Below, one piece after another: positions 42,472-54,562 of a stretch of DNA of 63,595 nucleotides (positions within the stretch are counted from its first letter, which is position 1; each line of letters starts with the position of its first letter). The notes under the pieces are model-generated. The model saw only the letters and a program-made list of their open reading frames with translations. It was not told where the DNA came from and did no database searches. The stretch lies in the sequence record MK373795.1; one strand, given 5' to 3'. A program made the translations under genes and the position numbers. The DNA is from Escherichia phage vB_EcoS_HdSG1.

Positions 42472-43296
42472 TTACTCTGCAGTTTTCTGAGACGGAATTT
42501 CTACGTTAGCGGCCGCTTGTGCAATATTAGCAGGTACTGGAACGGATACGCGACCAGTAATGCCCATGTATTTCTTCCAGCGAGCGTATTCCGCTTTAAC
42601 GTTGGCTTCGTTCAGGCCTTTGTCCAGTGCAACAGGCAGAACGTAGCTGATCGGTGCAGTCTGACCCAGCTCCAGGGTCACAGCGTCAAAGATATCCCAT
42701 GCAGCACGGCACAGAGTACCGACACCAGGCTTACGAATACCGTTCTGTTCAGGCTCTTTCTTAGCTTCGCGTTCTGCTGCTTTACGAGCACGCTCTTCGT
42801 CCTGCAGACGTTTCTTCTCAGCGCGTTGTGCGTCACGTTGCGCTTTTTCAGCGGCCTTAGTGGCTTCGCGGGCAGCGGATACACGACCTTTAACATCTTT
42901 CAGAGTGGATTCAATGGAGGAAACCAGATCTTCAGATGCTGCAACGGCAGTTTTCAGCTGATCGTTGTCTTTAACTTTACGTGCGGCCGCTTTGACAGCT
43001 TTCAGGCCTTCTTTAGCGGTCTTCAGTTGAGCTGTAACTATGCCTTCAACTGCTTTAACTTCGTCCAGCAATGAACCTTCGTTCAGGGTTGCGAACTGTT
43101 CTTTAACAGCGGACGCAGCACCTTCGATCACATTATAACCGGCAGTGGCTTCGTTCAATGCGGCGTCAACTTTAGCCTGCAATTCACGTGCTGCTTTTTC
43201 TTCAGCTTCACGTTTTTTCTTTGCTTCAGCTTCTTTTGCTGCTTTCTTTGCTGCTTCTTCTGCTTCCAGTTGCTCTGGAGTTTTCTCTTTAGCCAT
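42472..43296 (-). CDS. Lys/Ala/Glu-rich coiled-coil protein, unknown function
   Basis: 274 aa; first approx 190 aa low-complexity KAE-rich; RBS GTGAGGA. Confidence 0.6.
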   Translation of the reverse strand: MAKEKTPEQLEAEEAAKKAAKEAEAKKKREAEEKAARELQAKVDAALNEATAGYNVIEGAASAVKEQFATLNEGSLLDEVKAVEGIVTAQLKTAKEGLKAVKAAARKVKDNDQLKTAVAASEDLVSSIESTLKDVKGRVSAAREATKAAEKAQRDAQRAEKKRLQDEERARKAAEREAKKEPEQNGIRKPGVGTLCRAAWDIFDAVTLELGQTAPISYVLPVALDKGLNEANVKAEYARWKKYMGITGRVSVPVPANIAQAAANVEIPSQKTAE

Positions 43297-43392
43297 GATT
43301 TAAATCCTCACAGTGTGGTTATTGGTTGTGAACTACGTTCTAAGTGGTTGCACTATAACCCCTCTAAAAGAACTATGCAATATTTTAGTTAA

Positions 43393-51801: not shown

Positions 51802-52263
51802 CTAAGCGTGGCCGTTTCTCTTAATGTATTCGTAAGCATGTGATTTAAAGATTATCCGAAAATCTTCCAGGGATATTTCACATCTCGGAGGATCTTCTTT
51901 GTGATGTTTCGCTTCATCAGCGAAAAGCATGATAGGGTTCATATACAGGACTACGCGCCAGGGCTTCTTATTCTGACGGTACATAAGAACTGGAAACTTG
52001 TCTGCTTCCAATGCACTCTTAACACACTGCGCCCACCATGTGTTAATTGATAGCTGCTCCTGTCGTTTAACTTCCACCGCATAGAAACAGGTATTTGTGA
52101 TATCACAACCACCTACAGCACTCTGATTCTGGTTACGTTGTGCTATGGGCTTTTCTGGATAAGTCATTCCAAGAGCGGCGTAAACTTCTTCATAAATGTC
52201 ATTAAAGAATTTACAGATCTCACGCTCACCTGTCTGACCTTTAGTACGAGGATTAGCTCCCAT
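51802..52263 (-). CDS. hypothetical protein (possible PD-(D/E)xK nuclease)
   Basis: ATG 52263 with GGATGGAG; D...EVK motif. Confidence 0.4.
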   Translation of the reverse strand: MGANPRTKGQTGEREICKFFNDIYEEVYAALGMTYPEKPIAQRNQNQSAVGGCDITNTCFYAVEVKRQEQLSINTWWAQCVKSALEADKFPVLMYRQNKKPWRVVLYMNPIMLFADEAKHHKEDPPRCEISLEDFRIIFKSHAYEYIKRNGHA

Positions 52264-52449
52264 GTTATAAATCTCCATCCAAAAAATAGGGGGTACACAA
52301 GTACCCCCGAAAGCGAAGCATATAATAGATAATAACATGTCAGCGAGAGGCAGCCTTCGAAAAGGGGTAATCTACCAACCACTCTCGCAAATAATGTTAA
52401 CCTGTTTACGTGTTTGATTACAATACACGAATTCGTCAGAATTCACAGG

Positions 52450-53709: not shown

Positions 53710-53907
53710 TTAAAAGAACGTACCAGTTAACACATACAGCACAGCGTCACGCAGTGTTGGCAACAAAGGCGAGCAGTTAGGAACGCTGTAGAATTTACGT
53801 GATCCCACTTTAACACTCACTATTGTAATAGAACGTTTATTGCGCTCTACTGCGTAGAGACCACCACCGAGACGACGGACTTTATATAGAGGTTGATGCT
53901 TTTGCAT
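53710..53907 (-). CDS. hypothetical protein
   Basis: 65-aa basic ORF. Confidence 0.45.
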   Translation of the reverse strand: MQKHQPLYKVRRLGGGLYAVERNKRSITIVSVKVGSRKFYSVPNCSPLLPTLRDAVLYVLTGTFF

Positions 53908-53924
53908 GTTTTAACTCCTTTCTT

Positions 53925-54203
53925 TTATTTGCTGACACGTATGGCTCTACCTGTTAAGAAGGTGTATCCACAGTGCCGCATTAAGTCACGTTCTTCTATT
54001 ACACTTCGTAACTGGCGTGACAGCGTTTCATAGTAAGGACGGACTTCGTTCTTACTGATAGCTAAAGCATAGGCGAACAGTTGTTCCGAGTCAATACGAT
54101 TAGACTTGATTCTTTTGATCGCCTGCTCAATTCCTGGGAACTCCTCATCCTGGTATAGAGCACCGTACACAATTTTAATAGCTGCTAGATTGTAACTGGA
54201 CAT
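53925..54203 (-). CDS. hypothetical protein
   Basis: 92-aa ORF. Confidence 0.5.
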   Translation of the reverse strand: MSSYNLAAIKIVYGALYQDEEFPGIEQAIKRIKSNRIDSEQLFAYALAISKNEVRPYYETLSRQLRSVIEERDLMRHCGYTFLTGRAIRVSK

Positions 54204-54238
54204 TTGACCCTCGGACGTAAAATAATTCTTGATACCTA

Positions 54239-54266
54239 TTGCATTCCTAAGGAAATGCTCTATAGT
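54239..54266 (+). promoter_or_regulatory. candidate sigma70 promoter for the orphan plus-strand gene
   Basis: TTGCAT (54239..54244), 16-nt spacer, TATAGT (54261..54266). Confidence 0.4.
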
Positions 54267-54301
54267 ATGTATTATACAGTTTATAAGCGGAGGAACACAA
54301 A

Positions 54302-54532
54302 ATGACTCACCAAGATCTTATAAAAAGAAACATCAGAACTGCAATGAACAAATCAGAGGAATTCTCACATAACTGTACTGATGGCACTCATAAAATCAGA
54401 TACGAATATATGGGATCCCCAACTGTGGTTACATTTGAGAAAGATGAGTATCACGTTGGAGATTTTTCAACACCAGATTACGACGAGATGTTTGAATACG
54501 TTGTATGTGGGTTCTTAAAGTTGCACGAATAA
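54302..54532 (+). CDS. hypothetical protein, only plus-strand gene in the early block
   Basis: 76 aa, RBS GCGGAGGAA, own promoter-like element and terminator. Confidence 0.6.
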   Translation: MTHQDLIKRNIRTAMNKSEEFSHNCTDGTHKIRYEYMGSPTVVTFEKDEYHVGDFSTPDYDEMFEYVVCGFLKLHE

Positions 54533-54536
54533 TATA

Positions 54537-54562
54537 ATGGGCGCATATAGCGCCCATTTTTA
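54537..54562. terminator. bidirectional terminator
   Basis: ATGGGCGC / GCGCCCAT stem, 5-nt loop, TTTTT. Confidence 0.65.

Follow-up and report, generated by a model that had tools for sequence, protein, structure and literature searches.

A conserved primase-adjacent gene cassette with a likely two-way promoter and a terminator in phages related to 9g

The stretch of Escherichia phage vB_EcoS_HdSG1 DNA analysed here (MK373795.1, 63,595 nt; hereafter the window) is a whole Nonagvirus genome (phage 9g-like, subfamily Queuovirinae) with a unit length of 60,232 bp; it wraps, positions 1-3363 being exactly repeated at 60233-63595. From position 34216 to about 60000 its genes form a minus-strand block, which is interrupted by one small plus-strand gene (54302..54532, stop codon 54530-54532), an open reading frame (ORF) of 76 amino acids (aa) that belongs to PHROG 17131 and is a homologue of 9g_00024. 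It is flanked by a divergently oriented 92-aa gene (53925..54203, minus strand; PHROG 17339), which is always adjacent and divergent to it, and by a convergent primase/helicase gene of 849 aa (54560..57109, minus strand), which is of the DUF3987 type in relatives. A preliminary description of this DNA had called the small gene the only plus-strand gene in about 26 kb, and this is borne out by the block in the window as well as by the annotation of phage JenK1, in which it is the sole plus-strand coding sequence (CDS) of the minus-strand block (record 26143 to beyond 54016). The promoter-like hexamers, ribosome-binding site (RBS), CDS and hairpin listed in that description were likewise all found in place. 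The gene family is already catalogued as hypothetical, with no function or cassette description; what we add from comparative sequence analysis is a rigidly conserved cassette that comprises the gene, a likely two-way promoter and a terminator.

The segment 53700-55200 matches 17 GenBank phage records, every one a Nonagvirus, at 91-97% identity. Our Nonagvirus comparison set consists of 19 distinct genomes, namely 12 distinct phages from these 17 records and seven IMG/VR contigs. Across this set, 15, 16 and 38 sites are variable at the first, second and third codon positions of the 76-aa frame, respectively, and the summed pairwise ratio of non-synonymous to synonymous polymorphism (pN/pS) is 0.17 in this frame versus 1.7 and 1.3 in the two other frames. 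By these measures, the small gene is a genuine coding gene in the right frame and under purifying selection. The neighbouring genes have pN/pS values of 0.06-0.09, about half that of the small gene, and judged by these ratios its protein is constrained yet evolves about twice as fast as its neighbours. Eighteen of the 19 genomes carry an uninterrupted ORF. In FritzHoffmann (Bas20), an additional G in the GGG run at window positions 54412-54414 leads to a frameshift, and a second frameshifted form, P0005, is present on three metagenomic contigs. The small gene appears to be dispensable, at least in laboratory conditions. A recombinant-looking patch was seen at residues 21-35, where phages SP8, BRET and JenP2 and the IMG/VR contig L021 carry a loop shorter by two codons (FLFEQGSSII in place of FSHNCTDGTHKI) between the first two strands; the gene is otherwise conserved.

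The small gene occupies the same site in the same orientation in 19/19 distinct Nonagvirus genomes. Beyond these, tblastn detected 33%-identical homologues in Klebsiella phage K9PH25C2 (Queuovirinae, other genus) and in Ec1-ASingh, where the homologue is again encoded opposite to its neighbours, a 'protease'-like gene on one side and the primase gene on the other. A database search started from the K9 form yielded 33 proteins of 64-114 aa, mostly 93-97 aa, many of which are encoded on contigs of ~60 kb, and from 1.84 billion representatives a profile search retrieved 19 hits, the credible ones all being same-family proteins of 71-95 aa; further members from the profile search have 81-93 aa. 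Long multi-stretch profile hits, such as P0046, were rejected as repetitive proteins that have only the 'DYDNM' motif in common with the family. Five members that were looked up individually (P0042, P0043, P0049, P0052 and P0055) are 26-33% identical to the window protein, and in each of them the order is a ~90-aa gene on the minus strand, the family gene on the plus strand and the primase gene on the minus strand. An N4_GP8-like gene, also on the minus strand, is present wherever the contig suffices; L034 and L042 end too early to show it. The seven-lineage comparison used below consists of Nonagvirus and the six lineages with a detectable homologue (K9PH25C2/Ec1-ASingh and five metagenomic ones). 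All six keep the primase-adjacent cassette at a protein identity of 24-37%. The divergent spacer between the 92-aa gene and the small gene measures 96-99 bp in six lineages of this comparison and 81 bp in the remaining one, and the convergent spacer between the small gene and the primase gene 5-39 bp.

A predicted sigma-70-type promoter, P(+), precedes the small gene at 54239..54266 on the plus strand. It consists of the -35 hexamer TTGCAT (54239-54244), a 16-nt spacer and the -10 hexamer TATAGT (54261-54266), and transcription from it would start near 54273. At the threshold of the promoter scan, chance alone yields about 26 sites per 10 kb, and on their own the P(+) hexamers are no better than chance; it is their conservation that supports a promoter at this site. 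The hexamers are invariant in the 19 Nonagvirus genomes, where the entire 98-bp spacer has 3/98 variable sites compared with 42/279, 69/231 and 123/441 (15-30%) in the flanking genes. TTGCA and TATAnT at a spacing of 16 nt are kept in six of the seven lineages though their spacers differ, and L042 has a degenerate version, TTGCGT and TAATAT, with a spacer of 16-17 nt. In the seven-lineage alignment, the conserved spacer columns are essentially TTGCA, TATAnT 16 nt further on, AnnATA shortly after it and GGA..ACAAAATG, and the rest has diverged. The spacers of K9PH25C2 and Ec1-ASingh are identical, and the proteins encoded next to them differ by many substitutions and an indel. The last of the conserved blocks includes the Shine-Dalgarno sequence GGAGG (54289..54293, plus strand), which lies 8 nt ahead of the ATG at 54302 and is followed by the conserved start context ACAAAATG. 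The block 'GG(A/G)..ACAAAATG' is kept in all seven lineages, with single-base variants such as GCAAAATG and ACAAATG, and is also found in Seuratvirus, Pantoea phage Vid5 and Providencia phage PSTCR7.

The remaining conserved block, AnnATA, reads TATnnT on the minus strand and is present at the equivalent position in 7/7 lineages. In the window it forms the -10 hexamer TATAAT (54276 to 54271) of a promoter-like site on the minus strand, P(-), at 54271..54300, with the -35 hexamer TTGTGT (54300 to 54295) at an 18-nt spacing and a start expected near 54264. The minus-strand -10 hexamer is TATAAT in the window and in K9 and TATAGT, TATGCT or TATACT in the others, and the -35 element located 18 nt upstream of TATnnT reads TTGTGT, TTGTAA or TTGTGC. 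We verified this distance to TTGTnn manually in four lineages; for the other three, the alignment has the conserved columns. The -10 hexamers of P(+) and P(-) are 4 bp apart on opposite strands (TATAGTatgtATTATA). The region has the layout of a two-way promoter, in which opposite-strand -10 elements lie in one melting region and each has a -35 element at a distance of 16 or 18 nt. Because the -10 hexamers are only 4 bp apart, P(+) and P(-) would melt the same ~14 bp, and occupancy of the two should therefore be mutually exclusive.

Some further features were noted around these promoters. The A/T-rich block AAAATAATT (54219..54227, plus strand), at about -54 to -46 of P(+), shows partial conservation between the window, L034 and L036; it is a candidate UP element or, alternatively, a piece of the leftward mRNA leader. 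The palindrome GCATTCCTAAGGAAATGC was considered as an operator and rejected: the genome has a single copy of it, and the lineages do not share it. Neither of the two predicted 5' leaders folds better than shuffled sequence. A second exact match to the P(+) hexamers, TTGCAT-N17-TATAGT preceded by the A/T-rich TAAAATA, which resembles AAAATAATT, is found at 43352-43380 on the minus strand. The 96-bp gap that holds it precedes the gene 42472-43296, where the deazaguanine-modification gene cluster begins. With 0.06 exact TTGCAT...TATAGT sites expected by chance, the two that were found suggest a recurring promoter type in this phage.

At the other end of the small gene, a predicted two-way intrinsic terminator (54536..54561) is placed between two convergent stop codons, that of the small gene and that of the primase gene. 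It is composed of a 9-bp GC-rich stem, AATGGGCGC/GCGCCCATT (54536-54544/54550-54558), a 5-nt loop and a T run (T57-T61) that overlaps the primase stop codon. The hairpin folds with -15.7 kcal/mol on the plus strand (z -4.1) and -16.8 kcal/mol on the minus strand (z -4.4) relative to shuffles. On the plus strand it is followed by a clean U5 tail (5-10 T in relatives); the tail on the minus strand is interrupted (UUAUAUUAUU), and the scan still called a minus-strand site. From these features, the hairpin would be a good terminator on the plus strand and a plausible, weaker one on the minus strand. Only 1/27 of its sites is variable among the 19 Nonagvirus genomes, and an equivalent hairpin is present in five of the six other lineages as well as in Seuratvirus, Vid5 and PSTCR7. 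In L042, a GCCCC remnant is all that is left between the stop codons and no hairpin is readable. In a search of Rfam with 53800-54800, the only match was to sraA; it covers the terminator and, at 22 bits, stays below the gathering score of 56.

The protein encoded by the small gene is a direct member of PHROG 17131 (E 6.4e-55, residues 1-76 on profile positions 1-76) and is 97% identical to the product of 9g gene 24, from which it does not differ in kind. It has a net charge of -6, and every homologue and positional analogue is likewise acidic (-5 to -9). An AlphaFold2 model (predicted local distance difference test score, pLDDT, 80) shows the order H-E-E-E-E-E-H, i.e. an alpha-beta5-alpha arrangement. 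The family is characterised by an N-terminal helix with the pattern I..(I)K.AMN..E.YS, a beta-sheet core and a C-terminal helix that begins with DYDEMF; these motifs are kept over 24-37% identity, and cysteines are not conserved. No significant Pfam hit was obtained for the window protein or any of the 26 family members (best KOW6_SPT5, E 0.076), NCBIfam gave nothing, a profile search of PDB sequences returned no relative (best E 0.49), PHROGs contains only the unnamed family 17131, and a Foldseek search of BFVD with the model retrieved only a member of its own family. There is no helix-turn-helix in the model, and Pfam and NCBIfam gave no DNA-binding hits.

The slot next to the primase gene is also filled in more distant phages. 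Seuratvirus (KurtStettler), Vid5 and PSTCR7 encode primases that are about 30-33% identical to the window primase, and each has a 59-74-aa gene convergent with it. These positional analogues are accompanied by a hairpin of the same style (AAAGGGCGC..GCGCCCTTT in Vid5) and by the start context GGAGGATTACAAAATG or close variants. Homology was not demonstrable by hhalign of the family against the Seuratvirus and Vid5 proteins (E 0.045-0.77, probability about 1%), and in Foldseek searches of BFVD the window and Vid5 models do not retrieve each other's family. The model of the Vid5 analogue (pLDDT 84) has a helix, five strands and a helix in the same order as the window protein. The small gene is absent from the Pseudomonas, Stenotrophomonas and Alteromonas relatives NP1, Salva and R7M. 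From this distribution, we read the slot as an ancestral feature of the group's enterobacterial branch. The gene itself is probably ancestral to that branch as well, with homology unproven outside the detectable family.

Taken together, we favour, with moderate confidence, the interpretation that the small gene and its flanking signals are an ancestral, insulated transcription cassette of the 9g-like phages and their enterobacterial relatives and not a recent insertion. We propose that P(+), TTGCAT-16-TATAGT, would drive the 76-aa gene rightward from near 54273, and that P(-), TTGTGT-18-TATAAT, would set off renewed leftward transcription from near 54264 through eight small genes, including one for an N4 gp8-like replication inhibitor. 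RNA polymerase would occupy this two-way promoter in one orientation at a time. The hairpin between the convergent stop codons would end the mRNA of the small gene and, less efficiently, the primase transcript; expression of the small gene would then depend on its own promoter alone. The first gene of the leftward unit would be the 92-aa gene, and the unit would close at a terminator-like hairpin on the minus strand (52289..52308), which consists of GGGGGTAC..GTACCCCC followed by the T-rich TATTTTTTGG; HdK1 has a terminator annotated at the equivalent place.

The eight small leftward genes run from 54203 down to 52450 and are bounded by this terminator-like site. This strong hairpin is situated between the small-gene cluster and a resolvase-like gene and falls into the N-terminal extension of a mechanically called ORF (51802-52338), the true start of which is probably further downstream. 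The N4 gp8-like gene (53710..53907, minus strand, 65 aa) matches Pfam PF25713, 'Bacteriophage N4 DNA replication inhibitor', over its full length (E 1.5e-18) and is annotated as merely hypothetical in GenBank relatives. For the 92-aa protein, the label 'putative cysteine protease / calpain domain' used in 9g and relatives is unsupported, the best Pfam matches being to unrelated families (E 0.026). The primase gene is a single ORF in the window and in most relatives and is split into two to four annotated fragments in HdK1 (L001 3862-6428) and SE1 (L013 1354-2494), probably due to frameshifts or sequencing errors in those records. A search for a replication origin revealed no switch in GC skew apart from the local effect of the inverted gene and no conserved repeats.

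Several points weigh against the proposed cassette. P(+) matches the sigma-70 consensus at 8/12 positions (-35 3/6, -10 5/6), which is below the scan threshold, and P(-) at 9/12, so that both are moderate matches. The block 'ACAAAATG' could be conserved for translation and not as a -35 element of P(-), and the near-invariance of the spacer in Nonagvirus could reflect another role, for example that of an mRNA leader or of a binding site. The minus-strand U tract is interrupted, and read-through of the primase transcript may occur there. The frameshifted copies of the small gene are located in homopolymer runs and could be sequencing errors, and size, charge, evolutionary rate and a weak fold resemblance are the entire evidence that bears on the function of the protein. 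In the literature that we searched, neither transcriptomes nor mapped promoters were found for Nonagvirus or Seuratvirus. The one published model that we came across, an analysis of 9g, predicts promoters at the genome end alone (PMC4276943).

The other explanations that we considered concern the reading frame, the role of the protein and the origin of the gene. In the BASEL annotations of ChristophMerian (Bas19, L003 3522-3811) and FritzHoffmann (Bas20, L006 1428-1732), the GenBank entries give two short plus-strand ORFs in place of the 76-aa gene, and one might argue that two such ORFs in other frames (54229-54372 and 54381-54518 in the window) are the true genes or that the 76-aa ORF exists by chance. 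This is extremely unlikely: the other frames, with pN/pS values of 1.3-1.7, show no purifying selection, the second short ORF has no start or contains stops in 9/19 genomes, tblastn recovers the 76-aa frame in ChristophMerian at 96% identity, and this frame has homologues down to 24% identity. Both ORFs annotated in ChristophMerian are in reading frames other than that of the 76-aa gene, and the second ORF of FritzHoffmann (bas20_0060) is its in-frame C-terminal remnant. A purely cis-acting function, in which terminator and promoter would serve as punctuation within the leftward block and the ORF would be carried along, would fit with cis elements that are far more conserved than the protein, with the Seuratvirus, Vid5 and PSTCR7 analogues, which keep hairpin and start context next to proteins without detectable similarity, and with the existence of frameshifted copies. 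We nevertheless regard it as unlikely, as the pN/pS of 0.17 and the excess of third-position changes indicate selection on the protein, the family motifs persist over 24-37% identity and the RBS and start context are conserved; moreover, punctuation needs no ~230 bp of opposite-strand coding sequence.

A regulator that is divergently transcribed from the operon under its control is a common layout in bacteria and phages, and the arrangement seen here matches it. The small protein might on this account control its own two-way promoter as a Cro/CI-like or Ner-like switch between the rightward gene and the leftward operon, which would agree with the overlap of two promoters that should exclude each other, with the extraordinary conservation of the spacer within the genus and with an imperfect palindrome, GCATTCC-TA-AGGAAATGC, within the P(+) spacer of the window. 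That palindrome, however, occurs once in the genome and is not conserved elsewhere, the other lineages sharing only the promoter hexamers. A Cro-like regulator is also disfavoured because the protein is acidic in all lineages and its model has neither a helix-turn-helix nor another DNA-binding fold, and the note in the 9g database that the protein is 'similar with transcription elongation factors' is based on a non-significant similarity (KOW6_SPT5, E 0.076, in 3/26 members). We therefore consider a regulator of this kind rather improbable. The preliminary description had seen classic moron architecture in the gene and had taken it to be probably acquired independently and perhaps expressed on a schedule of its own. 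We considered a moron in the sense of a recent, independent insertion into one lineage with a host-benefit or accessory role. One part of the moron interpretation stands: the gene does have its own promoter-like site, RBS and terminator in opposite orientation to the block, and hexamers and hairpin persist across lineages in which the rest has diverged. The GC content of the gene (0.364) is also lower than the average for the genome (0.439), some isolates, which carry frameshifts, seem able to do without the gene, and the distant relatives NP1, Salva and R7M do not have it. The part that does not stand is the independent acquisition. Recent acquisition is rejected because syntenic conservation is universal, the gene occupying the same site in six deeply diverged lineages as in all 19 genomes of Nonagvirus. 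Nor does the gene look foreign in composition: its GC content is inside the range of the adjacent small early genes (0.35-0.39), and its coding-strand GC skew of +0.07 has the same sign as that of other genes. In addition, we came across no relative with the ~90-aa gene directly abutting the primase gene, and the phage is virulent, hence prophage-type expression does not apply. We consider a moron in this sense very unlikely.

The product of the small gene probably binds and modulates a host or defence protein early in infection, a reading by analogy that is based on the small size, the charge, the fast evolution, the location in the early region and the apparent dispensability of the gene. 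A more specific version, to which we assign a low probability, is that the protein is a fast-evolving acidic inhibitor of a host anti-phage system, made from an insulated promoter on DNA entry in competition with the leftward host-takeover operon. Within the BASEL Queuovirinae, protection by Lactococcus AbiA extends to Bas20-Bas25 and not to Bas19, and AbiK acts on Bas20 only (PMC11077055). The copy of the small gene is intact in Bas19 and frameshifted in Bas20, and the Seuratvirus phages Bas21-25 have only the positional analogue without detectable sequence similarity, as checked in Bas22 alone. The AbiA/AbiK pattern amounts to one correlation, drawn from two phages with many further differences elsewhere in their genomes, and we regard it as a weak lead. 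No mutations in the small gene are reported in the defence papers that use Bas19 and Bas20.

The locus illustrates that opposite orientation together with an own promoter and terminator does not make a gene a recent acquisition; the cassette is among the most positionally stable features of the 9g-like replication block. It also provides a testable map of an internal transcription boundary for DNA-modifying coliphages, namely Bas19, Bas20, 9g and JenK1, singles out, as a possible host or defence effector, a small acidic protein that is conserved and apparently dispensable, and identifies the Bas19 and Bas20 annotations as using wrong reading frames at this gene. The practical value is modest and concerns one hypothetical protein family and one predicted promoter/terminator module.

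With regard to known systems, the small acidic early inhibitors of other phages, such as T7 gp1.2, which is a dGTPase inhibitor, PsiB and the anti-CRISPR AcrIIA11, are among the closest that we can name for the small protein. For the promoter region, the nearest counterpart might be the symmetric two-way promoters of E. coli, which Warman et al. are said to have described in 2021 as having opposite-strand -10 elements in one region. Like these, the region studied here combines a plus-strand TATAGT with a minus-strand TATAAT in one 16-bp near-palindrome with TTG-type -35 elements at 16-18 nt, and this likeness predicts divergent transcripts from a single polymerase-binding region. In contrast to the symmetric promoters, for which ~18 bp between the starts is reportedly typical, the -10 elements lie side by side and 4 bp apart, which would place the predicted starts about 9 bp apart. 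Morons, reportedly defined by Hendrix and colleagues as promoter-gene-terminator units of lambdoid and other temperate phages, are similar in that a single small and apparently non-essential gene with its own sigma-70-like promoter and intrinsic terminator is set in a longer operon of different polarity or timing. Unlike morons, the cassette is not patchy and occupies one site over the whole genus and lineages of 24-37% protein identity, its composition is native, the phage is virulent, and its promoter region apparently also serves the neighbouring operon.

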